Shown piece by piece: positions 610 through 28,901 of a stretch of DNA of 64,000 nucleotides (the stretch's first letter is position 1; each line of letters starts with the position of its first letter). The translations under genes were made by a program, and so were the position numbers. The stretch is taken from the IMG/VR virus record IMGVR_UViG_3300033075_001711. The stretch is one strand, 5' to 3'. This DNA is from an uncultured virus (IMG/VR IMGVR_UViG_3300033075_001711). Lineage: Duplodnaviria; Heunggongvirae; Uroviricota; Caudoviricetes. The notes under the pieces were generated by a model. That model ran no database searches. It saw only the letters and a list, made by a program, of their open reading frames with translations, and was not told the origin of the DNA.

Positions 610-936
610 TTACAAAAACGGATCGTATTCAGAAAATGAAATTTTAGCCATCGATTTTTGACATTTCCCATTACAAAAATAAAATCTCTCTAAATCTCCA
701 TAATACCACTCCTCACCTAACCTTGTAATCCTAAAAATCAGGCCCGGATACCAATTCGAAAACATCTTCATGTTATCTTCAATCTCATCCCACCTACTCC
801 ATTTAATAGAAATACCTTCATATAAAAAACCAATGTGTTGAAATGTCTTATTAAAATGTGTTAAAATTTTTTGGAATTCATCAGACTCAAATTTCATGTT
901 CGACATTTCTAAATAGAACCTTGAATTATATCCCAT
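610..936 (-). CDS. conserved hypothetical phage protein
   Basis: AAGGAG RBS; MGY...KW...FS.WYP..F.I...GEE...D...YF.NGK.Q pattern recalled from small phage proteins. Confidence 0.7.
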   Translation of the reverse strand: MGYNSRFYLEMSNMKFESDEFQKILTHFNKTFQHIGFLYEGISIKWSRWDEIEDNMKMFSNWYPGLIFRITRLGEEWYYGDLERFYFCNGKCQKSMAKISFSEYDPFL

Positions 937-947
937 AACCTTCTCCT

Positions 948-1520
948 TTACTTACTTACGGATTTGGTAGCAAATTCTCTAATAAAATCTTTAAATTTTT
1001 CATAAATCATTTTATCTCTTACTCCTATTATAATACCAAACTCTAAACTACTTGAATCACTCTCTTCTAACTCTACACAAGATTCTTTTTTCTCCCCTAA
1101 ATATACCATAGAGAAGACTTTTGGCTCAAACTGTTTTTTAAATTCATTCCAATTCTCTTTTGTAACTCCGTTCTCCAAATAATCAACATACCTATGAAAT
1201 TCCTCTAATAATTCTGAGATATCTATGTCATATCTTTCTCCTTCAAAATTAGGTTCAAAACAAATTTCTGTTTCCCATGTGACTCCAGATTCAAATAACA
1301 TAAATAAAGCTTTATTTATGTTTGAACTAAATTCATATTTTTTATATGAGGAATGTCTATCTTTCCAAAAAACAACATCTAAATAATATTTATTTTTTAC
1401 AGTCCTATACCGAATTTCAGATTCAGACTCATTTTCTGAATCTACTAATTCAAACGCATTTGGAAAATATTTAGACATCAATTTTCCAATTTCAAGAATC
1501 TCTTTTGTTTTAAATAACAT
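948..1520 (-). CDS. hypothetical protein
   Basis: 190-aa ORF, AAGGAG RBS. Confidence 0.75.
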   Translation of the reverse strand: MLFKTKEILEIGKLMSKYFPNAFELVDSENESESEIRYRTVKNKYYLDVVFWKDRHSSYKKYEFSSNINKALFMLFESGVTWETEICFEPNFEGERYDIDISELLEEFHRYVDYLENGVTKENWNEFKKQFEPKVFSMVYLGEKKESCVELEESDSSSLEFGIIIGVRDKMIYEKFKDFIREFATKSVSK

Positions 1521-1851: not shown

Positions 1852-2308
1852 GTTTATAAACCTCCATTTGTTCTAAAACACTAAAATAAAAAATTATGTT
1901 TCCACAAATTTCTACATCTAATCCTACTTCGGGATCTGTTTTAAAAAATTTACCTACCTTTATTTCTATATCAATATCCTCATCATCCAAAACAACACAA
2001 GCCCCAGCAGTATATTGTTTTCCAAATTTATCTAACCAAACTTTAATCTCCTCACTTCTAGGAACATTTCCTAAATTAGGTGTCATATCTAACACTTCTA
2101 TTTCATGATCTTCTAATATCTTTAATAATCTACTATAGACTTGAAAGTTATTCCTCCAGGTACTAGATATAACAATGTCACATTGACTTACTTTTTGTAA
2201 TGTAGATAAAGCTAATAAACATTTTCTATCTAATTTCCTATATAAAGGATTAAGTGTTGTGTCTTTACAAATAACACCATCTACATCAAGAAATAAAACT
2301 TTTTTCAT
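1811..2308 (-). CDS. HAD-family phosphatase (Swiss-Army-knife RNA-repair-like HAD domain)
   Basis: FLDVDGV motif I, IVISSTWR motif II, R..EI..WL, VVLDD motif IV, GL. Confidence 0.85.
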   Translation of the reverse strand: MKKVLFLDVDGVICKDTTLNPLYRKLDRKCLLALSTLQKVSQCDIVISSTWRNNFQVYSRLLKILEDHEIEVLDMTPNLGNVPRSEEIKVWLDKFGKQYTAGACVVLDDEDIDIEIKVGKFFKTDPEVGLDVEICGNIIFYFSVLEQMEVYKHGQELDLGSKDTI

Positions 2309-2604
2309 TTGGAAATAGTTTCTAAATTAAGACTAGGTTTAATTACAGTCCAAACATTCTCATCTGTATCTCTGTGAAATAAAATCAGATTGTTTCCGGA
2401 CTTACAAAGTAGTTGATATTCTCTAGAAGAGGCATGTCCCATCTCATATCGAATGTCTTTTAATTCCTCACATTCATTAGGAATTGTCAAAACAACAGGC
2501 TTCTCTGTCTCTGTCTCTGTTTCTATTACATCTAAATTTTCACAAGAGCTAGAAAATAAACCTATAATCATAAACATAAGAAGTTCTAGTTTTAAAAATC
2601 TCAT
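2305..2604 (-). CDS. putative lipoprotein
   Basis: hydrophobic N-terminus ending FSSSC (lipobox-like). Confidence 0.55.
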   Translation of the reverse strand: MRFLKLELLMFMIIGLFSSSCENLDVIETETETEKPVVLTIPNECEELKDIRYEMGHASSREYQLLCKSGNNLILFHRDTDENVWTVIKPSLNLETISK

Positions 2605-2624
2605 TTGTTTTATCCCCTATTCAG

Positions 2625-3116
2625 CTAAACTTTTTCAACACTAATTTTTCTAAAATCTCCGCCCCCACCCCACCCCCAAAATCTAGGCAAATTTACTCCT
2701 ACTCGAATAACATCACATAATTTCCCCTCCAAAAATTTTAAACTTGGAGTATGATGATATCCACCAAAATCACAATTAGGATCCTCACCAAATACTTCCC
2801 AAATTCCATACTCATCTAAATTATATTTTTCCAATAATCTTTTATAAGAACTTGTCTTTTGATAGGATTCAATATTTTTATTTATGTTCTCTTCTTTTGA
2901 AAAAGAATATTTTTTATAAAATGTTTTTCTAAAATTACTCTTTTCAGGAAAAATATACACAGCTATATCTGCGGATCCAATTTTTACATTCTCCCTAAAT
3001 ATATCTCTAGCAAAATCATAATAAGGATCTCGGGATTCTCCATATAAATTAGGATAAATCTTACCAGAATATTCTTTTCCATTCAGCTCACATAGAATGT
3101 TAACTTCTTTTTCCAT
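2625..3116 (-). CDS. hypothetical phage protein
   Basis: AGGAG RBS; W.V.GEDPNCDFGG.HH.P.L...EG...W..WG.GG pattern. Confidence 0.7.
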   Translation of the reverse strand: MEKEVNILCELNGKEYSGKIYPNLYGESRDPYYDFARDIFRENVKIGSADIAVYIFPEKSNFRKTFYKKYSFSKEENINKNIESYQKTSSYKRLLEKYNLDEYGIWEVFGEDPNCDFGGYHHTPSLKFLEGKLCDVIRVGVNLPRFWGWGGGGDFRKISVEKV

Positions 3117-3133
3117 ATCAATTCTCCTTAATT

Positions 3134-3418
3134 TTAGTGTAAATTTAACAACTGTCTTTCTCGCTCAGTTAACTTGCTCAAAGCAATTTCCCTATCCATT
3201 TTATATTTTAATACTTTGTCTTCTGCTTCTTTGTTTTTTAAATACCAATATTCTAACCCTGGAATATCATCTACCATTGCCAACCCAGCCATTTTACAAA
3301 GACTATATAACATATCTGAAAGATTTTTGTTTTCTGTTTCCAGAGAAATTATAACCCTTTGTAAATTTTCATTTTGATTCCGAGCATCTACTAATTTAGC
3401 TTCATCATCATAATACAT
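3134..3418 (-). CDS. hypothetical coiled-coil protein
   Basis: ORF in operon; C-terminal ALSKLT.RER.LL. Confidence 0.65.
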   Translation of the reverse strand: MYYDDEAKLVDARNQNENLQRVIISLETENKNLSDMLYSLCKMAGLAMVDDIPGLEYWYLKNKEAEDKVLKYKMDREIALSKLTERERQLLNLH

Positions 3419-3438
3419 AAAATGTGCCCCCTAAAATT

Positions 3439-3951
3439 TTAAAGTTTTAGAAACTTAGAAACTTCAGACTCTAACGTGTAAACCTCAACACTAACTCCAG
3501 CTCCAGCTCCTACTAACTCCTCTTCTATAATTTTTTCTATAATCTCCCACCTAGCCCCTGCAAGCCCACAACCTATACGCGGCATTACAACTTTCCAATT
3601 CAAACCTAATTTTAAAATTTCATTTCTAACATTCCTCAATCCATCCCTAATAGCATCATATCTAATAGGTGGAACATTTCCTTTAGAATATATATCATGT
3701 TGACCTATTAGATTAGCAACATATATATCCTTTTCTACTTCTACATATTGAACCGCCCCTAATTTATACAATATATTTCCAGAAGCACTCCATTTTCTAT
3801 ACGCAAACTCAGGCGCTTTCCATTTACGAGAAAGTGCCGTTACAAATCCCTTCCCCCATTTACCAGGACTACAATCATTACAGACATGTACTAAAATGGC
3901 GGGAGCCTTTATGTTTTCTAAAACATCTCCAACTTTATAAACAATACTCAT
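3439..3951 (-). CDS. macro domain (Appr-1''-p processing / ADP-ribose hydrolase) protein
   Basis: Y.VGD, HVCND..G.WGKGF..AL..KW, VANLIGQH, MPRIGCGLAGA.W motifs. Confidence 0.9.
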   Translation of the reverse strand: MSIVYKVGDVLENIKAPAILVHVCNDCSPGKWGKGFVTALSRKWKAPEFAYRKWSASGNILYKLGAVQYVEVEKDIYVANLIGQHDIYSKGNVPPIRYDAIRDGLRNVRNEILKLGLNWKVVMPRIGCGLAGARWEIIEKIIEEELVGAGAGVSVEVYTLESEVSKFLKL

Positions 3952-3969
3952 AATAAATCCTCAATCCTC

Positions 3970-4311
3970 CTAAACTAACTCATATGTTCCATAATCATAA
4001 ACATTCAAAGAACAATTAAAAAAGAACTTTAATGTCTCACGCTTATACACAGCGTCTCTCAATCCCGCCCTATATAAAACATTATGCTCCTGCTCTAATT
4101 TATCTTGTTTTAACTCAAAAGATTTTTTCTGCCTCTCCATTTCTAATACTTGTCTCTCTTTATCCTGTATTTTTAACTCCTCTATTGCTTTCTGTAAATC
4201 TTCTAACTGTAAAAATACACGATCATCATTTATCTTTTCCCAAATATCATAATCTCCATTCGTGTTTTTATACACAATGTAATAAACAGTTCTAGGTAAT
4301 TCCAAATCCAT
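3970..4311 (-). CDS. hypothetical protein
   Basis: ORF in operon. Confidence 0.65.
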   Translation of the reverse strand: MDLELPRTVYYIVYKNTNGDYDIWEKINDDRVFLQLEDLQKAIEELKIQDKERQVLEMERQKKSFELKQDKLEQEHNVLYRAGLRDAVYKRETLKFFFNCSLNVYDYGTYELV

Positions 4312-4338
4312 AAAATTAAATGTTCTCCTAAACTAAAA

Positions 4339-4641
4339 CTAAGACATGTAAAAATCAGCAAATTTAAATCCTAAAGGCTCAGTTTTTGCCCTAAACTCAC
4401 GCAATAAAACATTTTCAGCTTCTTTTCCTTTTTCACGAATATCTCCATAACTAAACATCTTCTGTCCCGTAAAATCTCTCATTATAAAATTTCCTATGTT
4501 CTCCTTTAATAACGTATCCATCCCCCACCTCTGATACTCAGCATCAAACCTCTCATTTAAAAATCTCTCCGACCTTAAATAATCTAAACTAGGAGAAAAT
4601 CCAAACGCATCCCATAAAGAATCCTGAATGTCCTGATTCAT
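4339..4641 (-). CDS. hypothetical protein (start uncertain)
   Basis: ORF in operon; several candidate starts between 4641 and 4674. Confidence 0.55.
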   Translation of the reverse strand: MNQDIQDSLWDAFGFSPSLDYLRSERFLNERFDAEYQRWGMDTLLKENIGNFIMRDFTGQKMFSYGDIREKGKEAENVLLREFRAKTEPLGFKFADFYMS

Positions 4642-4664
4642 AACTGCTAGTTTTGAATTCATAT

Positions 4665-5045
4665 CTAAACACACTCCTTTTCAATTCCTAACTCAATCAC
4701 TAATTTATCACCACTCTGTATTACAGATGTTCTCCAACCTAACTTCTTAAAATATACTACCAAATTCTCCATAAAATCCGGAACCTGCCTAAGAAAATCT
4801 CTCAAACTTAATTTCTGAGATCTCACCTCCATGCTACTATTTAAATGATTTTCTAAAATCACAGTCTCCGCCCCAGAACCACTTAACTGTTTTATTTTAG
4901 ATTTTAATCCATTTATAATATGATTCGCCCAATCCTCATGCAATCTCTTCTTTACTTCCTCATTAGCAGAAACAAAATTCTCTGCACTATATTCATTATC
5001 ATTCTCAGTTCCATCGACCCAAAAATCACTGCTAAGATAACTCAT
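4665..5045 (-). CDS. hypothetical protein
   Basis: ORF in operon with GAGGAG RBS. Confidence 0.7.
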   Translation of the reverse strand: MSYLSSDFWVDGTENDNEYSAENFVSANEEVKKRLHEDWANHIINGLKSKIKQLSGSGAETVILENHLNSSMEVRSQKLSLRDFLRQVPDFMENLVVYFKKLGWRTSVIQSGDKLVIELGIEKECV

Positions 5046-5048
5046 AAT

Positions 5049-5573
5049 CTATTTCTCCTCTAAATTTGAATTAACTATACCTTTATCATACATATATACT
5101 TCTATATCCGGACCTAATTCCTCCTCTACTATCTTCTCTAACTCAACTAAATCGTTTTTTATATTCCCCTTCCCTAACCTATCACTCAATACCACATATC
5201 TTAAACCAGACATGTCCTCTAAATTCTGTATTTGCTTCCTCACATCTTGTAAAGCAATTCTCAAACTATCCTGTCTTATCCCCGACCTTCTACCTATCTT
5301 ATACCACCCAGCCTCCACTATCATGTTCGCTACATATACCCCATCACTCACCATAACATATTGCACCGCTCCCATTACATAATTCTCATGCTCCTTATTA
5401 CAATCAGAAGAACTCCACCTCCTATATCTTGTCTCCACTATCTCAAATTTATTTCCTAACTCTATCAAAAATGGAGAACCCCACCTACCAGGTATACAAT
5501 GACTACACGCATTTAATAAAAAACACGGAGCCTTTAAATTTTCTAATACATCACCTTTAACTCTAGTTAACAT
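5049..5573 (-). CDS. divergent macro-domain protein, paralog of 3439..3951
   Basis: shares GDVLEN.KAP, PG.WG, YR.WS.S, GAVQYV.V...YVAN.I, IR.D..R..L..VR, EKI.EEEL with 3439..3951; lacks the PRIGCGLAG loop. Confidence 0.75.
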   Translation of the reverse strand: MLTRVKGDVLENLKAPCFLLNACSHCIPGRWGSPFLIELGNKFEIVETRYRRWSSSDCNKEHENYVMGAVQYVMVSDGVYVANMIVEAGWYKIGRRSGIRQDSLRIALQDVRKQIQNLEDMSGLRYVVLSDRLGKGNIKNDLVELEKIVEEELGPDIEVYMYDKGIVNSNLEEK

Positions 5574-5587
5574 ATTTTCCCCTATAC

Positions 5588-6031
5588 TTAAACCTTAAAT
5601 TTCCTAGGAAACTCATCCAGAATCATCTCTACTTCCACATTTCCTAATTCTATTGTTTTAAATTTCCCACTCCGAATCAACTCATTACTATATACAGGCT
5701 GTACCCCATTAATACACGCAACCGTTATATGCGGAACCTGATTATCAGACACTAAATTTCCTAAATCTAACCTATCTACAGGTATAACTTGCGCCTTCTC
5801 ATCATATACCAACCTATCCACTTTTATTCTATATCTCCTCCCTATTAATGGTTCATAATGATCCATGTCAATCTCACTAGGCTTATATTTTAATGTCACA
5901 TGATCCAAATACACACGATCATATAACTCTATTCCTTTACTTACCTCTATCAAATTTGATAACAAATCCCTAGACTTATTTACCAAAAACAACCCAACAT
6001 AAATTGGCAACTTACTCATTATTCTACCCAA
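5588..6031 (-). CDS. 2H phosphoesterase (tRNA-ligase CPDase-like)
   Basis: two HxT motifs (DHVTL, PHITV) plus PVYSNELI. Confidence 0.75.
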   Translation of the reverse strand: MGRIMSKLPIYVGLFLVNKSRDLLSNLIEVSKGIELYDRVYLDHVTLKYKPSEIDMDHYEPLIGRRYRIKVDRLVYDEKAQVIPVDRLDLGNLVSDNQVPHITVACINGVQPVYSNELIRSGKFKTIELGNVEVEMILDEFPRKFKV

Positions 6032-6428
6032 CCCTCTCTAAATTTATATAATATGTCAAATTATCCCTTACATGTGCTAATGCTTTAGACCAAGCCTTTT
6101 CCTCCGAAACATCTGAAATTGTAAATTTAATATCATTTACTGATTTAACCCTATAACTATATTTTTTAGAATTTAAAAACATGTTCGTCTCTTCTGATCT
6201 TATAACTGTATCCAATACCATAAAATCAAATTTTTCAAATATCTCCTTATACCTCTCTAAAGAAATATCCACTATCTCATACGGCCCAAATTTACATCCC
6301 TCTCTTTTAGAAAAATACTGATCTAAAACCCTCTTGTTTCGCCCTATTACACAACCCTTGGGTCTATAATTATCTCGCAACAAATCTGCCATTACAATTG
6401 GTAAATTTTCGAATATAAATTCACTCAT
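6024..6428 (-). CDS. hypothetical protein
   Basis: first ORF after the promoter at 6479-6507. Confidence 0.65.
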   Translation of the reverse strand: MSEFIFENLPIVMADLLRDNYRPKGCVIGRNKRVLDQYFSKREGCKFGPYEIVDISLERYKEIFEKFDFMVLDTVIRSEETNMFLNSKKYSYRVKSVNDIKFTISDVSEEKAWSKALAHVRDNLTYYINLERVG

Positions 6429-7074: not shown

Positions 7075-7103
7075 CTTATAATACCCCATATATGTTTTGT
7101 CAA
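7075..7103 (-). promoter_or_regulatory. sigma70-type promoter
   Basis: TTGACA-N17-TATAAG upstream of the deaminase; a similar promoter lies at 6479-6507. Confidence 0.7.
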
Positions 7104-7324: not shown

Positions 7325-7775
7325 TAAATCACATATCTTTATTCTTAATAAACTTCCTAGATTTATAATTATGGTAAAGGATTTAACTATTCGTTTTATC
7401 TTTTACCTTTATAACATATAAATACATTTTTATATAACATATTAAGAATAAATCACATAAATTTTTATATATGGTAAATGATCTAACTATTCGTTTTATC
7501 TTTTACCTTTATTCTTAATAAACTACATAAATTTTAAGGTCTAGGATATAAATCACCCTTATTCTTATGTCTATTACATAAAATGTTTTTATTTTTCATT
7601 ATTGTATATGATCTAACTTTACGTTTTATCTTTTACCCTTATTCTTAATAAACTACAGAGATTTTAAGGTTTATTACATTAGGGTATATGATCTAACTAT
7701 ACGTTTTATCTTTTACTTTTAAAATACATAAATCACTCTTATTCTTATATCTATTACATAAAATGTTTTTAAATT
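7325..7775. repeat. AT-rich direct-repeat tract (candidate origin/terminus element)
   Basis: 4 copies of GATYTAACTWTWCGTTTTATCTTTTAC at 7380, 7480, 7610, 7690; TTATTCTTAATAAACT x3; AAATCAC..TTATTCTTAT.TCTATTACATAAAATGTTTTT x2. Confidence 0.85.
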
Positions 7776-8415
7776 TTCGCAAAAAAAATTTTTTGAAAAA
7801 CTTGAAAAAAATGCGCGGCTAAAAATCCAGAAAATAAAACTCTAAATTTATTTTATCTCTATACTAAACTACAAAAAAACAAAGAGAGCCTCAAAAATTA
7901 GTGTTTTTTTGGCTCTTTTAAAACAGTATATTTACTTGTTTTTCTTAGCTACAAAATTAGTGCTTTCTACATTCAGAAATTTTGTGGCTAAAGTATAGGT
8001 AGTGTACTCAGAGAGAGGTTTAACATAACCTCTGCGGGGGCGAGTTTTACCAAACAGGCCCATTGCAATTTTACCTTTTCTGGAACGTCTATCTCCACGA
8101 GCCATAAAATAATCCTCCGATTTCAGTAGTTGTTAAACGGGGCAGTGTTGTGTACAAAAAAATAGCGGGATGTTTTAAATCCTGTTTTTGTATTTTTTAA
8201 TATTCTACACTGAATGTTTTTTTGCAGGTTCACATCTACGAATTAATCCGACTTATGGTTGCGGTACGTAGTCACACTCTTACCTTAGCTTAATTGCAAA
8301 TCAACATAAAATTTAGAGTATTAAATTTTACATGTATATACTTTACTTATTTAATATTGTGGTTTTTGAATGTATATTCTTAATATGTAGAATTTAAATT
8401 AAGGTTTAACACATT

Positions 8416-8730
8416 ATGCCTATTTGTGCAAATTGTAACTCTGTATATCCAAATACTGTTAAAATTGAAGGAATTGTTCGCAATTTGTCTAGTCGAAAAT
8501 ATTGTTTAGAATGTTCTCCTTTTGGAGAACACAATACACGTAAAATTTTATTAGGTGTGAAACAATTACGTCCTTATAAAATTGTGTGGCCGGAACTTAC
8601 TGTTTTGATTGAAAAATTAAAAACATTTTCATATTTACAATTAGGAAAAGAGTTGGGAGTTTCAGATCAGGCTATTAGAAAACATTTAAAATACTTTAAT
8701 ATAGATCCAAAAAAAGTTAAATTTTTATAA
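8416..8730 (+). CDS. Zn-ribbon + HTH protein, probable nuclease-less homing-endonuclease remnant
   Basis: CxxC...RKYCLECSPFGEHNT N-terminus and LGKELGVSDQAIRKHL HTH; no HNH core. Confidence 0.6.
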   Translation: MPICANCNSVYPNTVKIEGIVRNLSSRKYCLECSPFGEHNTRKILLGVKQLRPYKIVWPELTVLIEKLKTFSYLQLGKELGVSDQAIRKHLKYFNIDPKKVKFL

Positions 8731-8735
8731 CTAAA

Positions 8736-8810
8736 TACGCCCGCACAGATTCGAACTGTGGTTCTAGCATTAGAAGTGCTATTTCTTGTATCCAATTAGA
8801 AGACAGGCGC
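8736..8810 (-). tRNA. tRNA-Arg(UCU)
   Basis: cloverleaf: TAGCA-CT TCT AA-TGCTA anticodon arm, CACAG-TTCGAAT-CTGTG T arm; no encoded CCA. Confidence 0.9.
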
Positions 8811-9026
8811 AAACAAATATATTTAATGTTTATTGGTATAATTATGAGCCCAGACCATAACAGTTCCAAGGCCAAGTAGCCATAGGAGAGGGCTGGTTAG
8901 CATACTTTCACCAAAATTAAATAAAAATACTACAATAAAGAGAATTGCTGCTACATATTTAATTAGGGTAAAAGGGAGGCTATTTTTATTAAATTCAAGC
9001 ATTTAATTTTTTCCTTTTTACAAAAA

Positions 9027-9114
9027 TGGTTGGTAGGAGTGGATTCGAACCACTGAACGTCGTTAGACGGGGAGTTTTACAGACTCCATCCTTTAGCCAC
9101 TTGGATACCTACCA
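9027..9114 (-). tRNA. tRNA-Tyr(GUA)
   Basis: GGAGT-CT GTA AA-ACTCC, long variable arm, AGTGG-TTCGAAT-CCACT, encoded CCA. Confidence 0.95.
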
Positions 9115-9129
9115 ATAAATTTAAAACCC

Positions 9130-9288
9130 AGAACATTAGAAGGATTTGAACCTTCAATAATCAGTTACGTCACACTGTTCTGATCCGGTGGATTCTGCCA
9201 TGAGTGTGGACCTTGGGATCACTCTTGCAAGGCCATTCTTTATTGGCTTAAGCCACACCGCTGTCTGCCATTTCCAGCATAATGTTCT
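9130..9288 (-). ncRNA. Leu-type tRNA body with ~60-nt structured insert in the anticodon arm
   Basis: acceptor AACATTA/TAATGTT, D arm CTG-GAAATGGCAGA-CAG, CGGTG/CACCG, long variable arm, T arm GAAGG-TTCAAAT-CCTTC. Confidence 0.75.
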
Positions 9289-9770
9289 TTTTGGTTTATC
9301 AACTGAAAAGATGCCGTCCCTTCAGATCTGCCAATTACGGACGGTAGGACGATTACATAATTTTCATATATAATCAGGCAGTATTTGAGCACATCTTTTC
9401 AAACAAGAGTTTTTGTATTTCACCTAGATTTGCCAGTTTCTAGGATCCCTACTAGGTAATCTCCTAACCTATGTTACATACTTTCAAATGTAACTGATAA
9501 CTTTATTTTACTTAAGTTGTGTTATTCAACTATTAAAGCTCAACTCCACTTTCTGACATGGCACCGGGGAGGACCCGTCAGATAGACTTTAGAGACATGA
9601 TATTTAAACATTGGTTATATTCAACATTTAAAAACGAGGTGGTTCACGACTCCCAAGAAAATTTTTAGGTTTTCTCCCTCTTATCTCCTAAAGAGGCATC
9701 CTTCCTAGCCCCTGTTTAATCTAAAATATTGTGGCTTACTATTTAGTGTTTTTACCTACACTATATCTTT

Positions 9771-9835
9771 TATAGTTACGGATTCTTACCGTCCGCTGGA
9801 CTCAAAACCAGTCCTCTTCATTGAGGTAAACTATA
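9771..9835 (-). ncRNA. miniature/degenerate tRNA-like cloverleaf
   Basis: TATAGTT/AACTATA acceptor, CCTC/GAGG D stem, CTGG/CCAG with 8-nt loop TTTTGAGT, ACGG-TAAGAAT-CCGT. Confidence 0.5.
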
Positions 9836-10212
9836 TAGGATATTTTGTTTTTCAAGAAACAGTTCTATATGATTGGTAAAAATCTTCAGAACTGTCAACC
9901 TACCACAACTTGAGATATTATTTTAGATTTTTTGATTATTATAAAAAGGATAAATTACTGGAATATTTCAACTGGCCTTGGCAAACATGGTTAGTGTTTT
10001 TATTTCCTTAAAGGGAGCTGTGCCAATTGCGTAATTTATCTAGAAAAATAACCACTTTTTCTATTTATCTTTTTATAATAACTTTTGTGACTTTGTGTGT
10101 ATTTGCAGGGCTTAAACCCAGCCACACACTAGAGTTTAGAATGTGTTTAGTCACACTATTGTATGAAAAATTACAATCAAAACTCAGGGTCAGTCACCTG
10201 TCTCCTGTTTTT

Positions 10213-10241
10213 ATTATAACACCTAGTTTCTTGTTTGTCAA
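10213..10241 (-). promoter_or_regulatory. consensus sigma70 promoter (extended -10)
   Basis: TTGACA-N17-TATAAT with TG immediately upstream (TGT TATAAT). Confidence 0.9.
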
Positions 10242-10265
10242 GAGGCTAGGGTTAAAATTTTAAAA

Positions 10266-10395
10266 AACTCAGATTAAATTTTTTAGCGGCTGCTGCTCTC
10301 CCCCTGAGCTATTCTGGAGAGAGTCTCCAGAAGAAAGATTTGAACTTTCGACCCGCAGCTTGGATGCTTATTTTTGCTGAATTTAATCTTTAGTT
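10266..10395 (-). ncRNA. circularly permuted tRNA-like RNA (YrlA/Y-RNA topology)
   Basis: order: GCTGC, variable loop, T arm GAAAG-TTCAAAT-CTTTC, 9-bp acceptor-like stem closed by a 3-nt loop, D arm GCTC-AGGGGGA-GAGC, GCAGC; enclosed by a 10-bp terminal helix followed by CAGCAA. Confidence 0.8.
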
Positions 10396-10399
10396 AAAA

Positions 10400-10481
10400 T
10401 AGGGTAGGAAAGACTTGAACTTTCACGGATTTCTCCAGCAAATTTTGAGTTTGCCCCCTGTACCTGTTCGGGTACTACCCC
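10400..10481 (-). tRNA. tRNA-Leu(CAA)
   Basis: GCAAA-CT CAA AA-TTTGC, long variable arm, GAAAG-TTCAAGT-CTTTC. Confidence 0.92.
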
Positions 10482-10589
10482 AAATAATTCAGAAATAAAC
10501 CTTTTCCACTTCATTGGTTAGCTAGACCTCCATGTTGGAGGTTTATTTCTGAAGTTTTTTTCTGATTCTTTAGTTATAGCAAATATTAA

Positions 10590-11335
10590 TTTTGCAACCA
10601 GATACAAAACTAAATTCCTCACCACTTTCTCATCACATACATTCAGGAAACCTTACTATGTAAAATTCAGCAGGTGACGCTGGGCCTCAATTCATTTATA
10701 CTCAGTAGTGGGCCAGCCTGAGTTAAGTCTAGAGAGACTATTACTATTTCCACTAAGGATTTAGAGTTTAAATCTCTTTTTATAGTAAACTAGACTTGTT
10801 TTACTCTAGGCAAGTGTTTCGCTTGCAATTGTCATAATGACCGCAGGTTAAGAACCACTAGAGTAGATAAGATGTGTTTCATATTTCCAGGTTTGCATTA
10901 GCCCATAATTTTACAACACATCTAATCTCAATTGTTCCCTGTAGAGATTAACCAGATCCCAGATACTTTTGCTTTCGAAATTTCTCTGGTTTGAAATTTA
11001 TATCTAGTTTCTACTTTGATACATTACCTCGTACCAGTTCACTGGCCTTTTACGCGCCCATGTTCCAGTTCCCCGGTCTTTCACGTATCATTTTGTTGCC
11101 AGATACAAATTTCGTTTATGCTAGGAGCTAGGAGCTAGGAGAGAAAAATATTACATTCACGCGAGCAGTCCCTACTCTGACCAGTCATGTCTGTAACATT
11201 CTTCTCACAATAGGTTGTCCTAGTTAGGGAACAACACGCCTATTGTTTTTATCCTATTTGAAAAACACTACCTTGTCTATATGACAATCAGGTTTAGTAC
11301 CTTTTCGTGTTTTTCTGAGCTGAGAGGTTTTTCAC
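10590..11335 (-). ncRNA. candidate large multi-domain ncRNA (~750 nt)
   Basis: ORF-free; about 9 consecutive closing helices; promoter directly upstream at 11348-11376. Confidence 0.55.
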
Positions 11336-11347
11336 TCTCTCTCTATC

Positions 11348-11376
11348 TTTATAACACCTCGGGACTGATTTGTCAA
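11348..11376 (-). promoter_or_regulatory. sigma70-type promoter
   Basis: TTGACA-N17-TATAAA with GGTGT before -10; a second promoter at 11451-11479. Confidence 0.8.
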
Positions 11377-11727
11377 GAGGTGTTAGTAAGAATTTTTTTG
11401 TGGGGTTGTGAGAGGTGAGTTTTTTGTTTCAGTCCCGCCTCTCATTATTATGTATAATATCTAGTTTGAGGTTTGTCAAGTGAGCTGGGCTGGGTTAGAA
11501 AATTTATGTTTTTAATTATCTCTGTAAATTTAGATTTATATAAAATAGTGCAGATACCTAGGATTCACTGCATAGTATATAAATACCCGCAAAAAAGATT
11601 CGGTCGTTCGGGTTTTGTTTGGGAGTTATACAGCCCTGCCTTTATTATGCTAAACACGTCTGTAAAGCTTTTATGGGGGAGCTTCTGTACCAAACTAAAT
11701 TTACAGAGATAATTAGGAACATAAAAT

Positions 11728-12063
11728 TTATGTGTTTGTAATAAAAATCCATTCTCCTGCTATATACATCATATTATATTCAATAGGAGGTTCAGGTGGA
11801 AATGGATTAGGAAATTCGTAATTAGCTGGAAAAATTTCTTTTAGGATAAAACGATATTCATATTTATTAGGAACTTCTTTTGTGGATAACATCGCTGTTA
11901 TTTTATCACAAAGGTTTTGAAATTTCGGAATTTCTGTAAATGATTCGTCACAACTAAAACATAGATGTGTGATGACATCATTTAACATAATTGTTGGAAG
12001 AGATTTAAATCTCATGTTTTTTGTGTGAGTGTGAAGATCACAACCACAATTACATTGGAGCAT
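11728..12063 (-). CDS. MqsA/YgiT-type zinc-finger protein lacking the HTH
   Basis: CxC...LPTIML.DV..HLCFSCDE...EIP....L...I...L..K......EYRFI pattern; AAAGGA RBS. Confidence 0.55.
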   Translation of the reverse strand: MLQCNCGCDLHTHTKNMRFKSLPTIMLNDVITHLCFSCDESFTEIPKFQNLCDKITAMLSTKEVPNKYEYRFILKEIFPANYEFPNPFPPEPPIEYNMMYIAGEWIFITNT

Positions 12064-12279
12064 AGGAAGTTTCCTTTTTATTTTGTTGATATTTAACAAC
12101 ATGTATATTTTCGTGTGTTTCCATATGACAATTTAAACATAATAAATCACATTTATCTACTTCGGAAATTACTTCTTGCCAATTTTTATAACTTGCATTA
12201 GATATAGTAAATTTCTAATTTTTCCATCTATACAAAAATGGTTAGAAAATTTTTCATTACAGTTTAAACAAATTGGCAT
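12049..12279 (-). pseudogene. internally deleted, frameshifted HNH endonuclease
   Basis: frame 1 MPICLNCNEKFSNHFCIDGKIRNL (matches the 8416 N-terminus); frame 2 FTIS...NWQEVISEVDKCDLLCLNCHMETH (HNH C-terminal half). Confidence 0.7.
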
Positions 12280-12342
12280 ATATTAAATAACCTTTCAGTT
12301 ATTATATACACCAACGTAGCTTAATTTTTAGGCTACTCTAGA

Positions 12343-12621
12343 TTAAAGTGGAGATAAATTTTTCCTAATCCAGTGCAAAGTTTTATTTTTTATTTCTCCT
12401 GAACTTAATGTTTTAATATCAGCGGAGTCATTCTCAACATTAAAAACATCGTATTCTATAGAGAGTTTATTTTTATTTACATATTTTCCAGGCTTTATTT
12501 CCACATGTTTTAGTTTTTCATACTCCTCTAAATATTTTTGTTGTGCGGAGGATATTTCATATCCTTTTTCTTTTGCACGCAAAATGGATTGCATCATAAA
12601 ATCTTTAGAAGACATAAACAC
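12343..12621 (-). CDS. hypothetical protein
   Basis: 92-aa ORF with GAGG RBS downstream of tRNA-Ile. Confidence 0.65.
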   Translation of the reverse strand: MFMSSKDFMMQSILRAKEKGYEISSAQQKYLEEYEKLKHVEIKPGKYVNKNKLSIEYDVFNVENDSADIKTLSSGEIKNKTLHWIRKNLSPL

Positions 12622-12635
12622 CTCGAATTATAATA

Positions 12636-12713
12636 TGGGCACACTTGGATTTGAACCAAGGAATGACGCAGTTTATAAGGCTGCCGCCCTAGACCAGACT
12701 AGGCGATGTGCCC
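12636..12713 (-). tRNA. tRNA-Ile(UAU)
   Basis: GGGCACA/TGTGCCC, GCAGC-CT TAT AA-ACTGC, CTTGG-TTCAAAT-CCAAG. Confidence 0.88.
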
Positions 12714-12724
12714 GAAAATTTGAA

Positions 12725-12800
12725 CTGTAGGGGAGGGATTCGAACCCCCGAAAATAGGCGTGTTAACAGCACGCTGCCTTACCAACTTGGCGACCCTACA
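12725..12800 (-). tRNA. tRNA-Asn(GUU)
   Basis: GCGTG-CT GTT AA-CACGC, TTCGAAT T loop; acceptor/T junction appears one nt short. Confidence 0.85.
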
Positions 12801-12823
12801 TTTTTTACTTACCGCACTCTATC

Positions 12824-12852
12824 TTTATAACACCTCAAGACCGGGTTGTCAA
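12824..12852 (-). promoter_or_regulatory. sigma70-type promoter for tRNA-Asn/Ile
   Basis: TTGACA-N17-TATAAA; second promoter TTGACA-N17-TAGATA at 12942-12970. Confidence 0.8.
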
Positions 12853-13206
12853 GAGGTGGTTGAAAGTTTATTTTTAGAGGGAGGAGGGTGAGGTTCTCCA
12901 TAGACTTTTACCATGCGCCCGCACTCTTTTCCCATACTCTTTATCTAACACCTCCGGACTAGATTGTCAAGAGGGTTTGAGGTATTTATTTTACGATACC
13001 TCGTCCTGGGCATCCTGGCCTAGGACATTGAACATATGAGTCTGAATCCGTAACAAAAAAGTTACCAAAACATAATAATAAATTTTGTTGTCCTTCCTTA
13101 CCTTTCTCCGAAGAGAGAGGTTGTTACGAAACGATATTAGAAATCAAGTTACCTTTTTTAAAGAGGTTCACGCCTTAACACTGTCGGCAATTACATCCTC
13201 CAAATA

Positions 13207-13345
13207 AATCTCAAACTGTATTGTTCCCATTTAATTTTAATAGCAAACAGGATAAAGCTATTTAGATTGTTGTCCCGAGAGACAACTCTCTGTTTGATGC
13301 GAGTATTAGTCGCCAGTATTTTTTGCTGAATACAGTTTTTAGATT
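13207..13345 (-). ncRNA. Y-RNA-like stem family member 2
   Basis: TAA-AAACTGTATT-CAGCAA ... AATACAGTTT-GAG. Confidence 0.65.
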
Positions 13346-13412
13346 ATTTAAGAATTGTTAAATTTAATCAGAGTTGAACTGATACAACGAGGTGCCCCCC
13401 GTATGTTTAGCC

Positions 13413-13443
13413 ATTTCAATTCACATTAGAGTAAATCTAATGA
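13413..13443 (-). repeat. solitary CRISPR-repeat-like unit 1
   Basis: TCATTAGA-TTTAC-TCTAATG-TGAATTGAAAT. Confidence 0.55.
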
Positions 13444-13452
13444 TTTTTATAA

Positions 13453-13510
13453 AACTCAGACTAATTTTGGTTGTTATGTAAAACGTGAGTTGCTGAAATT
13501 AGTCTTTAGT
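13453..13510 (-). ncRNA. Y-RNA-like stem family member 3
   Basis: TAA-AGACTAATTT-CAGCAACTCACGTTTT ... AAATTAGTCT-GAG. Confidence 0.65.
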
Positions 13511-13520
13511 GAAAATGAAA

Positions 13521-13602
13521 TTGCGGGTCCTGGAATTGCACCAGGTTTACCAAATGGCAGAAGGTTATGAGCCTTCCCAGCTACTGTTGCTGAATACCCG
13601 CA
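13521..13602 (-). tRNA. tRNA-Met(CAU), atypical (long variable arm)
   Basis: TGCGGGT/ACCCGCA, GAAGG-CT CAT AA-CCTTC, TGCC-ATTT-GGTA variable hairpin, CCTGG-TGCAATT-CCAGG. Confidence 0.8.
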
Positions 13603-13636
13603 CAAAATAAATACCTCAGTTTAATGTTTGCTTTTG

Positions 13637-13670
13637 ATTTCAATTCAACATTAGAATTTTATTCTAATGA
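13637..13670 (-). repeat. solitary CRISPR-repeat-like unit 2
   Basis: TCATTAGAAT-AAA-ATTCTAATG-TTGAATTGAAAT. Confidence 0.55.
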
Positions 13671-13676
13671 AATTAA

Positions 13677-13750
13677 TCTAGCATGAATGATTTGAACATT
13701 CGACCTCTCGGATCCAAACCGAGCGTTCTCCCAGGCTGAACTAATGCTAG
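13677..13750 (-). tRNA. tRNA-Pro(UGG)
   Basis: CTAGCAT/ATGCTAG, CTCGG-TT TGG AT-CCGAG, GAATG-TTCAAAT-CATTC. Confidence 0.92.
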
Positions 13751-13976
13751 GTTTAAAACTATATTTATAGATAACCCAATCCACAATATATCAAACTAAT
13801 GTAAGGTTTTTGGTTTTCAAGATTGTAAAACCTTTTAAACAATCAATCCTTGGCAGTTACCCACCAGTTTGGTTTGCAGGATTTAGTTTTTATATATCAT
13901 GGTTTGGGATACCAATAAATATAGTTTAAGAAGGAGTGAGTAAATTAAACAATTTTTATATAGCATAGAATTTTTA

Positions 13977-14033
13977 TTCTGGCTGATTTTTATTGTTTAT
14001 ATCAAAAACGTGAGTAGCTGGAATCAGCCTTTA
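13977..14033 (-). ncRNA. Y-RNA-like stem family member 4
   Basis: TAA-AGGCTGATTC-CAGCTACTCACGTTTT ... AAATCAGCCA-GAA, nested in a longer helix spanning 13938-14072. Confidence 0.6.
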
Positions 14034-14257
14034 ACAGAAATCTATACTACAAAAGAATTGTTTAATTTACTCTTCTCTTATGTTTACGAAACTTATAGGG
14101 ATATTTGGATCTAACAACTCAAGGGTGCAATCTTACATTGTTAGATCCACTTTTATAACCTAACAGGGCAAGGCTGGAATCTTATACTGTTAGGTTAATT
14201 CCCTAATCCCAAGGAGAGGCAAAAATTTGTGAAGAGCGTTTCTCTCTCACACTCTTG

Positions 14258-14286
14258 TATCTAACACCGAGTTTGTGGTTTGTCAA
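14258..14286 (-). promoter_or_regulatory. sigma70-type promoter
   Basis: TTGACA-N17-TAGATA; another TTGACA-N17-TATATA at 14454-14482. Confidence 0.7.
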
Positions 14287-14346
14287 GGGGGCCTAGGTGT
14301 TAGAGAGAATTTTTTTGTGAGTTAGTTAGGAGCGTATTCGGTTGTC

Positions 14347-14378
14347 ATTTCAATTCTCATTAGAAAATTCTAATGTTA
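14347..14378 (-). repeat. solitary CRISPR-repeat-like unit 3
   Basis: CATTAGAA-TT-TTCTAATG-AGAATTGAAAT. Confidence 0.55.
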
Positions 14379-15115
14379 GAAACAATATTCAGTTGTCAAA
14401 GATGGGCTTGCTTGGTTCGCGCTTTCACGCCTTACCTCGCAACCTCTATTCTCTATATACGCTCACCTGAGCCCGTTGTCAATATGGATTTTATGTTTTT
14501 CTAAATTTTATTTTTCTCATTTTTTAAAACCAGATATCCTAAACTATATCTTTATTAAAATAGTCTCAAATTTGCATGTTTTTCGAGCCTTGAATAACTA
14601 GCATTTTTGCTATGCTTTTTAATAAAATTATATTCTGATATAGGTTAATTTAAAAAACACTATATTTTATTTTTCAATAATTATGTAATAAAATTATTCT
14701 ATAGATTTAAGAAATTAGAAATATAACTAATTTTATTAAATTTATAGTAACTGAACAGAAAATAATAAAGTTCCATATCCACTAGATACCTTCGGGTCGG
14801 TGATAGGGAGAAACTGATTTAATTGCAGCGTGGACTGAGTTCTTTATTGTTAGAAGTTTGGTTATAATAAATAGGGTAAAATGATTTATATTTATGGTTT
14901 TTTGAGTGCTACTCTTAGTAGAGACGCTATTGATCTGTCTATAAAAATCAATGAAATATTTTATATCTTTTTGAGCATTCAGGATATAGGGATTGATCTG
15001 TACAGGGTTGAATATAAACTGGGTTTAAATTTCAGGGGAATATTTTCCAGGCCCAGCCTAATATATTTATTTTATAATTTGTTTTTATATATGATAATTT
15101 TTAAGAAATACCTTT

Positions 15116-15715
15116 ATGAATAAAAACATTTTAGCTCAAAAAATAATATCTTTACATAAACAAGCTTTATTTGGATATAAAGATAATGATGGTGGAGATA
15201 CAGGTTCACAAGTACTACAACATTCAGAATTATTATCTAAAATAAAAAACCTAACTTCTAAAAATCCACAATTTTTTAAAAACTTAAATATTATTTATAA
15301 ACTGTTCCCAACTAAATCTGAGTTATTTGGAGATTTAAAATCTTTAGCTTTTTGGGAAACTAGTGGGAAATTATATAAATTAGATTCTATGTCTAATAAA
15401 GATTTAAAAATAGTAAAAACATTACTTGATAAAATTCAGAAATATATTCTTGATCATAAAGCTGATATTTTAAATCATTTAAAATCAGCACCTGTTATTA
15501 CTCAACTTAATAAATTAAATTCTAGTTTAAAAATGGGCGATCTTTTAAATTATATTGGTATGTTTATGAAATCTGTTCAAGAACCTACCAGCAGCCCCCT
15601 TAATATAGATATAAAAGAGTTGATGTCTAAAGTTAATGTTAAATTAAAATCTCTTTTTACATCTAATCCTAGAAAATTAGTTTCTCTTTTAAATTATATA
15701 GATAAAAATATTTAA
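15116..15715 (+). CDS. hypothetical protein (possibly late/virion)
   Basis: 199-aa ORF followed by a terminator hairpin. Confidence 0.75.
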   Translation: MNKNILAQKIISLHKQALFGYKDNDGGDTGSQVLQHSELLSKIKNLTSKNPQFFKNLNIIYKLFPTKSELFGDLKSLAFWETSGKLYKLDSMSNKDLKIVKTLLDKIQKYILDHKADILNHLKSAPVITQLNKLNSSLKMGDLLNYIGMFMKSVQEPTSSPLNIDIKELMSKVNVKLKSLFTSNPRKLVSLLNYIDKNI

Positions 15716-26785: not shown

Positions 26786-28901
26786 CTCCAACATTGTAAC
26801 GGGTTTAACATCTGGGTTGTTGACAATTTCGGAAAGGGTATAATATGCCCCCTCATAGACTGCTACAATATTTTCAAAAGTTTTTTTGATTTGTTTCAGG
26901 GTAGTGTCTTTAACAGAAAGACTATAGGTGTCATTGGTAGAATTGTAAGTAAGAATGGTGTAGAATCTGGGATAATAATTGGTTTCCAAAACTCGGAGAG
27001 CTATTCCAGATATTATTTCAGCAGGATCGTCAATAATTTCTTTCAACCCAGATTTAGGATATTCCACAAGTAATGGAAAATATGAATCCAATTTTTCTTC
27101 CTTGGTTTGAACCTTAACAGGTTCGGGGTTAGTAGTTTGAGAGTTATTATAGTAACCTTTTGATGGAATTCCACCTATCATTTTAAACCTCCTCTAAATG
27201 TTTTTCTAAAATTGATTTTGTTTGATCAATAGTGTAGAGAGAATCTCTGATAGTTATAGATTTGTCATTTTCTAAAACAAACTCCATTAAATCTTTGAAC
27301 TCTCTTGATCCGTTGAATACATCTGTGAATAAGAAATCCAACATCTCCAAATCATCATCAGGAAGTTTTTCAACAATCATGGTAACTGTTTCATGATCAT
27401 CATAAACTCTAACATCAAACATTTCAACAGGAGCACAAAATTCTGTATCAATATAAATTCTATTAGACATTTTATTTCAACTCCTTTTTTATTTAAATTT
27501 TTTTGAATAGTTTTCACAGTCTACAAATAAACAAATCCATTCAGGAGATAGCGCGTTTTTATCCAACAAATCCAATTGTTGATTGCATTTATTACAAACC
27601 GGCCTTTTATTTAACTCCGGAACATTATTTTGTGGGCAATTTAAACATCTCCCTTTTTTCATAAGAAGATTTTCCTCATATTTTTGATACCTTTTAGCCT
27701 GTTCATCTAGCAATTTAAATGCTTTATTTTCCTCATATTCTTGCCCTACCTCAATATCCCCCTCATTAAAATCTACATATCTCCAATCAATAATAGGACT
27801 GTTATTGTTTTGTGTTCCATTTGCAGTTAGCATTTTAGATACAAAGGTTGATATTAAATCTGCATCTGTTAGGGAATCAACTGCAAATTGAATTGTAGTG
27901 ATTTTAACTTTTCCACTAGGAGGATTTTTTGTTTCCATTAGATAAACACCAATTTTGAATTTTGGTTAAGACCTTCAGGTACTTTGATATCAACATCAGG
28001 ATTTTTTGTGAAAATATCTGAGTTTGGATCTGCTACTTTTCTATCTTCTAGCATTTTCCTTGCATTTTGGAGAGTATCGGAAACTATCAAGACTCCCCAA
28101 TTTAAACCCACATGACTCACACTAATAAAAGGGGCAAACCAAACAAACATTCTCATTTTCACCCTCACTTTCATACTAGATCTATAACACCTATTCTGAG
28201 GTTTGTCAATCTTTATTTTTGTTTTCCTCAAATTTTTCTTTTAGTTCTCTCAATTGCCTCGGAGATAGATTCAATCGTTCTGATACCCTGGTGTCATGTC
28301 CAAAAACAGACCCCCATCTATTTGTACCATGATGAAACTTGTATGGGATCTCATCCAAAATTTTGTCCACTAATTTATCTAATTCCTTTGCTCGGTTCCT
28401 TCTTTCATTGTAATCTTTTACAGGAATATCAAAATCCGCGCAAACAGGCATACACCAATCTTGATTCCGTTTGCCTATAGTAAAGAGGAGAATTCTCCAA
28501 ACATAAGCAGCTTCCCCATTTTTTGGTTTTGCGGATCTAACGTGCCCACCTCTTCCCATGATTTGATCCACAATAGTTTTTTCTTCTGGAGTAAATTGGA
28601 TTTTTTCAAGATATTCATCAATTTTAGGCATTAACATTTTTATTTACTCCCAATGACATAGAGGGAAAATAATTTGCCATTCTGAACAGTTTTGTTTGTA
28701 TGAGAGAGCAGATTTACATTGAGAGAGAAGTTCTTTATATTGATCTCTTCTTAAAGCCTCCAATTGAGTTTCAAGAATAGTGCAAAGAGCATGTTGCGAG
28801 GTTTCATCAATCACAATAATGGAGAGAACATTTTTCCCAATCACATTCTCATGGGGAACACAAAGGTATCCAGCTTGGCTCAAAATGCTCTTTAATTTCA
28901 T
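26768..28901 (-). other. run of small hypothetical genes (26768-27181, 27183-27470, 27489-27938, 27938-28156, 28206-28637, 28644-28901)
   Basis: abutting ORFs; promoters at 28181-28209 and near 28950. Confidence 0.7.

Follow-up and report, generated by a model that had tools for sequence, protein, structure and literature searches.

The DNA analysed here, hereafter the window, is a stretch of 64,000 nucleotides (nt) from an uncultured virus of the Caudoviricetes (IMG/VR record IMGVR_UViG_3300033075_001711), and it contains an island at positions 7900-14500 in which transfer RNA (tRNA) genes alternate with long non-coding spacers. The evidence supports the proposal that this island specifies a dense, promoter-driven set of structured non-coding RNAs placed between its tRNAs and lying outside the families of Rfam. 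The layout of such a region is known from phage T5; what is new here is a predicted YrlA-type mimic of tRNA, unaccompanied by any Ro60 gene in the window, plus a family of covarying stems. The interpretation that we hold to be probable, if only somewhat so, is that a low-GC phage encodes its tRNAs and stable RNAs here, in an early region built like that of T5.

A first-pass annotation, made from the sequence alone, had proposed an RNA island at these positions, and the island is real. It carries six canonical tRNAs as well as an odd cloverleaf that resembles tRNA-Met: ARAGORN calls seven tRNA genes between 8735 and 13750, every one on the minus strand, and Rfam recovers six of the seven. The canonical members are tRNA-Pro (UGG; 13677-13750, 61.2 bits in Rfam), tRNA-Asn (GUU; 12725-12800), tRNA-Ile (UAU; 12636-12713), tRNA-Leu (CAA; 10399-10482), tRNA-Tyr (GUA; 9027-9114) and tRNA-Arg (UCU; 8735-8811). 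The seventh, a five-arm cloverleaf with the anticodon CAU at 13521-13602, is called by ARAGORN and missed by Rfam even at E values up to 5; its cloverleaf fold has a z-score (z) of -3.56, its D loop lacks GG and its T loop reads UGCAAUU. About 4.5 kb of the island is free of open reading frames (ORFs) under all stop-codon recodings tried. In the three large gaps no stop-free frame of the minus strand exceeds 55 codons in the standard code, or 122 codons when any single stop (TGA, TAG or TAA) is read through, and recoded ORFs there were rejected.

The island is also rich in promoters. A promoter family of the form TTGACAA-N11-GGTGTTATAA has 20 matches in the window with no more than three mismatches, where 0.59 would be expected and none of 100 shuffled sequences reaches 20. 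Nineteen of these matches lie on the minus strand and six are inside the island, for a density of ~0.9 per kb there compared with 0.24 per kb elsewhere. A generic sigma-70 scan found 43 sites against 39.5 expected and hence no enrichment, so the signal lies with the promoter family and not with the consensus. Six of the seven minus-strand promoters listed in the first-pass annotation belong to this enriched family, and the GGTGT that it had seen before the -10 element of five sites is indeed present in five of the six island copies. Its seventh site, at 14454-14482 (minus strand), was read from the sequence as a weaker sigma-70-like promoter, TTGACA-N17-TATATA, outside the GGTGT class; the generic scan missed it because its -10 hexamer ends in A, and the family pattern does not match it either.

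Taken in order along the minus strand, the six island copies of the promoter family are spread across the tRNA array. The copy at 14259-14286 has two mismatches (TTGACAA-N11-GGTGTTAGAT) and belongs to repeat family D2, and that at 12943-12970 also has two. The copy at 12825-12852, with no mismatches, is upstream of tRNA-Asn, tRNA-Ile and the ORF at 12343-12621, and the copy at 11452-11479 (three mismatches) is followed by a 64-nt hairpin unit. The promoter at 11349-11376, again with no mismatches, would head a non-coding RNA of ~860 nt that extends to tRNA-Leu, and the one at 10214-10241, a perfect match to the consensus (12/12) with a TG-extended -10 element, would head ~1.1 kb of non-coding sequence that extends to tRNA-Tyr. 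By reading, several of the island copies are nested in a short inverted repeat, CCTC...GAGG. On the minus strand the family, in the form TTGACAA-N11-(G/A)GT(G/A)TTATAA, also heads many blocks of small ORFs beyond the island (for example at 7076-7103, 28182-28209, 37347-37374 and 50981-51008).

Many of the spacers are predicted to fold more stably than shuffled sequences. For 82 segments of 100 nt that overlap neither tRNAs nor ORFs, z averages -1.46 and is below -2 in 33%, compared with mean values of -0.27 and -0.56 (4% and 11% below -2) in two coding controls, the scores of such segments being noisy at 20 shuffles each. When whole inter-feature units are considered, seven of 11 beat every shuffle: T2 (14251-13751, z -10.3), T9 (10206-9115, z -7.2, 30 shuffles), T7 (11341-10483, z -6.5, 30 shuffles), T10 (11727-11485, z -6.2), T6 (11444-11381, z -4.3), which is the 64-nt hairpin unit mentioned above, T4 (13520-12975, z -3.7) and U1 (10398-10262, z -2.6). 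The three longest of the 73 inverted repeats of the window, with arms of 51, 47 and 40 nt, are all in the island. The longest (I1) forms a 135-nt hairpin at 13938-14072 (z -8.38), the next (I2) closes a 231-nt domain at 11499-11729 that corresponds to T10 and folds better on the plus strand, and the third (I3) closes a domain at 13756-13927, seen in the fold of T2, whose tip is termed U5.

Smaller minus-strand elements add to this picture. A closed domain at 14078-14222 holds two tandem paralogous hairpins of 11-13 bp with similar loops (z -5.04, equalled by 0/200 shuffles), a hairpin with a 15-bp stem occupies 11141-11206 (z -4.44), and a domain closed by a 14-bp stem (I13, 10482-10559, z -4.84; 21-nt arms, 90% complementary) abuts the 5' end of tRNA-Leu. 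Two further elements are weaker candidates. The tRNA-sized module at 9740-9812 has arm-like hairpins (z -2.06, with 7/200 shuffles as good), and neither ARAGORN nor Rfam calls a tRNA there. The stretch at 9130-9288 may be a tRNA frame with an insert, since the global fold contains a 9-bp acceptor-like stem, a T arm at 9139-9155 and ~65 nt at the position of the anticodon loop; the Rfam match at 9131-9179 is only a weak tRNA minihelix (17.5 bits, E = 1). Across 7500-15000, at E values up to 5, Rfam gives no credible match for the spacers beyond tRNA and a sub-threshold YrlA match.

One of the folded units, U1 (10262-10398), shares its terminal-stem platform with at least two paralogs that bear other tips, U2 (13454-13510) and U4 (13209-13343), all on the minus strand. 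The common 5' frame of the three consists of ACU or UCU, AA, a 10-bp helix and CAGCAA, and their common 3' frame consists of the return strand, G, AGU or AGA, and a U-rich tail. In the 10-bp helix 30/30 cells are paired, five of the 10 pairs are altered on both sides and the flanks are conserved, and the lower helix likewise covaries (a script counted the pairs on anchored coordinates, because the MAFFT alignment misplaced the 3' strands of U4 and U5). It is the tips that differ, being a tRNA mimic in U1, a 28-nt loop in U2 and a multi-hairpin domain in U4 (z -3.74, with 0/200 shuffles as good). U2 has the form ACU-AA-10 bp ... 10 bp-G-AGU, with CAGCAACUCACGUUUU in its loop, and the 16-nt motif of this loop (13480-13495) recurs in U3, the tip of the hairpin at 13938-14072, where an 8-bp helix presents a 33-nt loop that includes CAGCUACUCACGUUUU. 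Both U3 and U5 belong to the stem family more loosely and are seated on long closing stems. A search for the stem architecture by shape alone gave nine hits compared with one to seven in 10 shuffles, so the shape is not rare by itself and the claim of a family rests on the three sequence-related 10-bp members. U1 and U2 begin 5 and 11 nt past a tRNA, respectively, and end in GAGUUUU, and the next promoter lies directly after U1.

The core of U1 is predicted to be a non-decoding tRNA mimic of the YrlA type. The YrlA model (RF02553) aligns to 10291-10357 with 25 bits, covering model positions 23-85 of 114, with an E value of 0.061 over 7.5 kb and 0.0016 over 191 nt. The aligned parts include a 4-bp closing stem, a T arm (GAAAG-UUCAAAU-CUUUC), a loop-closed acceptor stem and a D arm (UAGCUCAG..GGGGAGAGC), and beside these the core has a 5-bp equivalent of the anticodon stem and a 5-nt variable loop. 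RNAfold returns the same three helices in a three-way core that is enclosed by the 10-bp terminal helix (fold z -2.60), and the permuted order of YrlA (T arm, loop-closed acceptor, D arm) is found in both the alignment and the RNAfold structure. The ends of U1 are predicted to pair as a basal stem through the 10-bp helix and a 4-bp lower helix in the minimum free energy (MFE) and centroid folds, and a U run follows U1. In line with the first-pass suggestion that some units mimic tRNA, the island contains tRNA-like elements besides its canonical tRNAs. The possibility that U1 is a permuted functional tRNA gene was rejected because, by reading, the flanks of the 5-bp stem cannot form a 7-nt anticodon loop.

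Like YrlA, U1 contains a permuted tRNA core inside a stem made by both RNA ends; unlike YrlA, it has a basal stem that does not look like the consensus of the family. Whereas YrlA genes adjoin Ro60 in the cases described in passages of one report (PMC4201824), U1 sits in a tRNA array and no Ro60 gene is found in the window. The motif GNCGAAN0-1G near the YrlA 5' end, proposed in the same passages to be the contact for Rsr (PMC4201824), is not found near the 5' end of U1; by reading, its sole fit is GUCGAAAG in the variable loop and T stem, and the tRNA-Pro of the island has a stretch like GUCGAAAG at the equivalent place. Excerpts of another report describe a Thermus phage Ro60 that binds two phage Y-like RNAs (PMC12135203). 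Three loci that carry tRNA arrays (L122-L124) have no YrlA match at E values up to 0.1, so neighbouring tRNAs do not generate the YrlA signal. The one match at this threshold in the 35 kb of control loci (L122-L125) is in L125, which is not a tRNA array and whose match to the tRNA-mimic pattern falls within this YrlA match. This metagenome contig, unrelated to the window and with 51% G+C, has at 837-955 (plus strand) a full-length YrlA-like RNA that covers model positions 1-114 and is also sub-threshold, at 30.3 bits.

A small hairpin motif had been singled out in the first-pass annotation as a look-alike of a CRISPR repeat. The motif, a hairpin followed by GAAUUGAAA, has three matches in the window against none expected, at 14348-14374 (the look-alike itself), 13638-13668 and 13414-13441 on the minus strand, and the copies vary in loop length and in the spacing ahead of the tail. 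The proposed mimicry is not borne out by species-representative genomes, in which hairpin plus GAATTGAAA gave 16 single, unrelated matches, no array and no extra copies within six mismatches, this pattern being strict enough that a diverged host repeat could escape it. The three copies resemble the RNA anti-CRISPRs known as Racr, described in part of one study as solitary repeat units (PMC10651486), in being solitary hairpin-plus-tail motifs, without an array, in a phage. They are unlike Racr in that no CRISPR array with this pattern was found and that loop and spacing vary among the copies.

Related sequences in public data reveal how the island varies between strains, with modules swapped or lost in relatives from three sludge and wastewater runs. 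Parts of the stretch are carried by 20 public runs from seven studies, mostly sludge and wastewater metagenomes, and one run, perhaps its source, carries all of it. Contigs from four runs match the island as pieces that are 80-99% identical and are separated by many module-level joints, which indicates that the island is a mosaic of exchangeable cassettes. In the relatives X3, X4 and X7 the joint 14077>14243 replaces 165 nt by 35 and thereby removes the domain at 14078-14222, and the joint 13510>13656 leaves them without the tRNA-Met-like element at 13521-13602; in X3 and X4 the joint 9739>9813 replaces 73 nt by 70. Further joints are 13345>13446, 8187>9405, 10811>11065 and 11256>11339, and two others (10213>11349 and 12852>14384) have their ends in promoter repeats. 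In the hairpin at 11141-11206, positions 11201 and 11146 both change in X4, converting a G.U pair to U-A on the minus strand, and another pair becomes G.U.

Searches of sequence collections returned little that resembles the island. Near and distant DNA searches of a phage collection gave either nothing or three matches of 50-59 nt, two under tRNA-Pro and one under a broken endonuclease gene. At the protein level, tblastn with a 435-amino-acid (aa) ORF had no match, two other large ORFs retrieved only proteins 21-28% identical in large phages, and two IMG/VR protein scans yielded no relatives. The promoter pattern occurs at 121 loci in IMG/VR, none of them related by blastn or tblastx save for one promoter-sized match of 38 nt, and the loop-motif pattern has no occurrence in IMG/VR. 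The tRNA-mimic pattern is likewise absent from IMG/VR and was found at four unrelated metagenome loci, of which three are adjacent tRNA pairs and one is a bacterial YrlA-like RNA.

The coding content of the island is small. Five ORFs with ribosome-binding sites were found, more than the three short ORFs counted in the first pass. On the minus strand these are a 92-aa ORF (12343-12621) and a 124-aa cysteine-rich ORF (11728-12102), neither of which is assigned to a family by domain scans, a 59-aa ORF that is hydrophobic by reading and has only a weak channel-helix match (8823-9002), and a 57-aa homologue of ribosomal protein THX (7932-8105; TIGR04560, 36.1 bits, cut-off 26). The fifth, on the plus strand at 8416-8730, is a 104-aa endonuclease-like ORF with the start of an HNH family and a helix-turn-helix (phrog_2255, 1.4e-09). 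The single pseudogene that had been reported is also present: a broken endonuclease-like gene at 12053-12279 (minus strand), consisting of a 36-aa N-terminal piece followed by a shifted frame, is identical to ORF 8416-8730 at 13/24 of its starting residues (54%), and neither of its pieces has a Pfam match. The THX homologue has a 32-aa C-terminal extension and sits at the downstream edge of the tRNA island.

The window as a whole has 31.8% G+C and a dense set of small ORFs, most of which are on the minus strand. Its domain matches (Kyano_Gp96, HNH and LAGLIDADG endonucleases, HAD_SAK_2, a 2H phosphoesterase of the tRNA_lig_CPD type, cREC_REC, DUF6891 and several PHROG families), to which NCBIfam adds a macro/DarG-like domain and the THX homologue, identify it as phage DNA rich in accessory and conflict genes. 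Genes of RNA-repair or ADP-ribose type near the island, all on the minus strand, include HAD_SAK_2 (1811-2308), macro/DarG-like (3439-3951) and 2H/tRNA_lig_CPD (5588-6031), and cREC_REC (34645-34932) belongs to the same group. Sections of a review of jumbo phages connect phage tRNAs, the 2H, Macro and cRec domains, and a TROVE protein whose partner is tRNA-like with protection of the translation machinery (PMC7824862). At the other end of the window, an HNH gene (59129-59656, minus strand) and a LAGLIDADG homing-endonuclease gene (60525-61430, plus strand) lie close together. Just downstream of the island, at 7408-7780, intergenic direct repeats with units of 44-80 nt, 73-97% alike and spaced 80-180 nt apart, occur together with an inverted repeat with 45-nt arms, which could represent an origin or a regulatory array. 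The inverted repeat I5 (14520-14657, 41-nt arms) lies in AT-rich divergent DNA that separates the island from the plus-strand ORF at 15116-15715. By reading, anti-Shine-Dalgarno-like sequences are found as three tandem copies of CUCCUAG inside a long non-coding stretch (11121-11142, minus strand) and as CU-rich runs such as CCUCACCCUCCUCCCUCU at ~12885-12868.

Among known systems, the island is closest to the tRNA region of T5 (AY543070, ~28-42 kb), a precedent that the first-pass annotation had missed and whose annotated features include tRNAs, promoters P11 to P16-17, three HNH endonuclease genes and small ORFs. The T5 record also lists eight "stable RNA" features (RNAI, III, IV, 1, 2, 3, 2H and X), all "with unknown functions"; RNA1, RNA2 and RNA3 are called tRNA-like, and RNAX, of 719 nt, is next to a tRNA. 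In both regions, tRNAs on one strand are interleaved with many sigma-70 promoters, small ORFs and HNH endonuclease genes, and T5 RNA1 scores against the Rfam tRNA model as a frame interrupted by an insert (24 bits over 131 nt), in which it resembles the possible frame at 9130-9288. At the sequence level the two regions are not similar, with no T5 record among the matches of the island when the phage collection was searched for distant DNA relatives, and positions 2200-6100 of the T5 locus have no YrlA match at E values up to 1. Unlike T5, the island has the stem family, closing arms of 40-51 nt and a promoter sequence particular to this phage. In phage T4, the species 1 and 2 RNAs (rnaC and rnaD) are stable small RNAs of unknown function that are co-transcribed with the phage tRNAs. 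The GOLLD and ROOL RNAs, as portrayed in part of one study, offer a different parallel, namely large structured non-coding RNAs near tRNA genes in phage DNA (PMC5737381); unlike these, the stretches of the island look modular and are mosaic in relatives.

From the observed promoters, tRNAs, folds, paralog covariation and mosaicism, we infer how the RNAs may be transcribed, processed and kept stable, and what those that are not tRNAs may do. Host RNA polymerase containing sigma-70 would initiate on the minus strand from six or seven near-consensus promoters, of a class that also appears to precede small genes of early type in other parts of the window. Host RNases would then cut the long precursors, with RNase P, Z and E acting at the tRNAs, and the folded modules between tRNAs would remain as stable small RNAs, closed by terminal stems of 10-50 bp that may shield them from exonuclease attack or mark sites of RNase III cleavage. 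The tRNAs could serve the translation of AT-rich phage genes or replace host tRNAs under attack, and portions of two reports describe phage tRNAs that evade tRNA-targeting defences (PMC10264068, PMC11555353). U1 may bind proteins that recognise the tRNA elbow and acceptor, and cassettes would swap between strains by recombination at the repeated promoters. A bolder extension, which we offer tentatively and regard as rather improbable, is that the island is an array of scaffold RNAs in cassettes that can be exchanged, in which one conserved basal platform (a lower helix, an internal loop of AA/G, the 10-bp helix and the CAGCAA junction) would carry different tips (a tRNA mimic, a conserved single-stranded loop of 28-33 nt or a multi-hairpin domain). 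The phage would in that case make its own Ro60-independent counterpart of Y RNA, which recruits or traps host RNA-processing or tRNA-targeting defence proteins and turns over between strains in an arms race.

Several observations weigh against reading the island as a region of stable structured RNAs. None of the 20 public runs is an RNA run, and no sequence relatives are found among the loci fetched from collections, so there is no cross-genome covariation. Folding shows no preference for the minus strand: the summed MFE is -915.5 on the minus and -891.8 on the plus strand, G.U pairs number 90 and 103, respectively, and T4, T10 and U1 fold better on the plus strand. Therefore, the long stems could be inverted repeats that matter at the level of DNA, and the minus-strand assignment derives solely from the promoters and tRNAs. 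The first-pass claim that most intervals fold is confirmed in part, with folding that is not unusual in four of the 11 promoter-to-feature units. Evidence from base changes in relatives is thin and mixed, with 40 of 288 differences listed. Of the eight X4 changes listed in the predicted fold of 10085-10212, six fall on paired bases, where five would break the pair and one keeps it as G.U, in an alignment made uncertain by indels. The score of U1 is far below the RF02553 gathering score (25 compared to 69 bits) and U1 has no match in a run at the gathering threshold, and none of the 85 ORFs of at least 57 aa scanned in the window matches TROVE/Ro60 at E values up to 0.01. Because of the sub-threshold score, the unlike basal stem, the misplaced motif and the lack of a TROVE ORF, U1 is described as a YrlA-type tRNA mimic in its modelled shape and is not filed as a member of the family. 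What survives of the Y RNA mimic in the first-pass annotation is thus a Y-RNA-like unit at 10262-10398 that scores below threshold.

Other explanations account for parts of the same evidence. The one proposed in the first-pass annotation, which we consider unlikely, is that the spacer RNAs form an arsenal of trans-acting sponges, each of which titrates a host defence or RNA-binding protein (Cas, Ro60/Rsr or tRNA-targeting nucleases). The non-canonical tRNA shapes of U1 and the tRNA-Met-like RNA, cassette turnover between strains as in an arms race, counter-defence-type genes nearby and the existence in phages of repeat-mimicking RNA anti-CRISPRs, as outlined in part of one study (PMC10651486), would all fit such a role. 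However, the genome collection holds single matches and no array for the CRISPR-like hairpin, whose three copies differ in loop length and tail spacing, unlike copies of one repeat, and U1 has no anticodon loop and so cannot bait anticodon nucleases. It is no less doubtful that the island is mostly debris, composed of decayed tRNA genes, homing-endonuclease remnants and recombination scars in a fast-changing region, whose folds would stem from leftover tRNA sequence and inverted repeats of the DNA and would not have been selected as RNA. tRNA-like fragments and a broken endonuclease gene are indeed present, modules are missing or replaced in relatives, folding lacks strand bias and, in a relative, several of the changes listed would disrupt base pairs of the predicted fold. 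Decay would not be expected to leave z-scores of -6 to -10 or arms of 40-51 nt, to keep 30/30 pairs of the stem family through five double changes or the exact geometry of the tRNA core in U1, or to retain a near-consensus promoter for each block.

The positions of U1 and U2 shortly after tRNAs, their GAGUUUU ends and the promoter that follows U1 would also be accounted for if the stems with U runs (U1, U2 and U4) and the long closing stems were cis-acting punctuation only, as terminators or RNase III/E signals that set the output of tRNA and mRNA, with no role in trans. The minus strand of the island has few canonical terminators, with two of three candidates inside tRNAs. We nevertheless think this quite improbable, since a terminator would not require a full tRNA-like core or a loop motif conserved over 16 nt, and AU-rich helices with very large loops make poor intrinsic terminators. 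Least credible to us, with very little probability, is that the 860-nt (11341-10483) and 1090-nt (10206-9115) stretches are one or two large ornate RNAs similar to GOLLD or ROOL. Both stretches beat all 30 shuffles (z -6.5 and -7.2), GOLLD and ROOL are placed near tRNAs and in prophages by sections of one study (PMC5737381), and T5 has the 719-nt RNAX annotated beside a tRNA. Yet no GOLLD or ROOL model matches in 7500-15000 at E values up to 5, and internal pieces of these stretches are lost or replaced in relatives (10811>11065, 11256>11339 and 9739>9813), which better fits chains of modules.

The stable RNAs of phage tRNA regions such as that of T5 have long been without explanation, and a T5-like stable-RNA region of the kind that we favour for this island gives experimental handles on them. 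These handles are a covarying paralog family, a predicted YrlA-type mimic with no Ro60 gene in 64 kb, and near-consensus sigma-70 promoters that should fire in a surrogate host. If its RNAs are not stable or do not bind proteins, the island would be one more mosaic tRNA region. If they prove to be stable and protein-binding, they would link phage tRNA islands to the conflict over RNA repair and tRNA defence.

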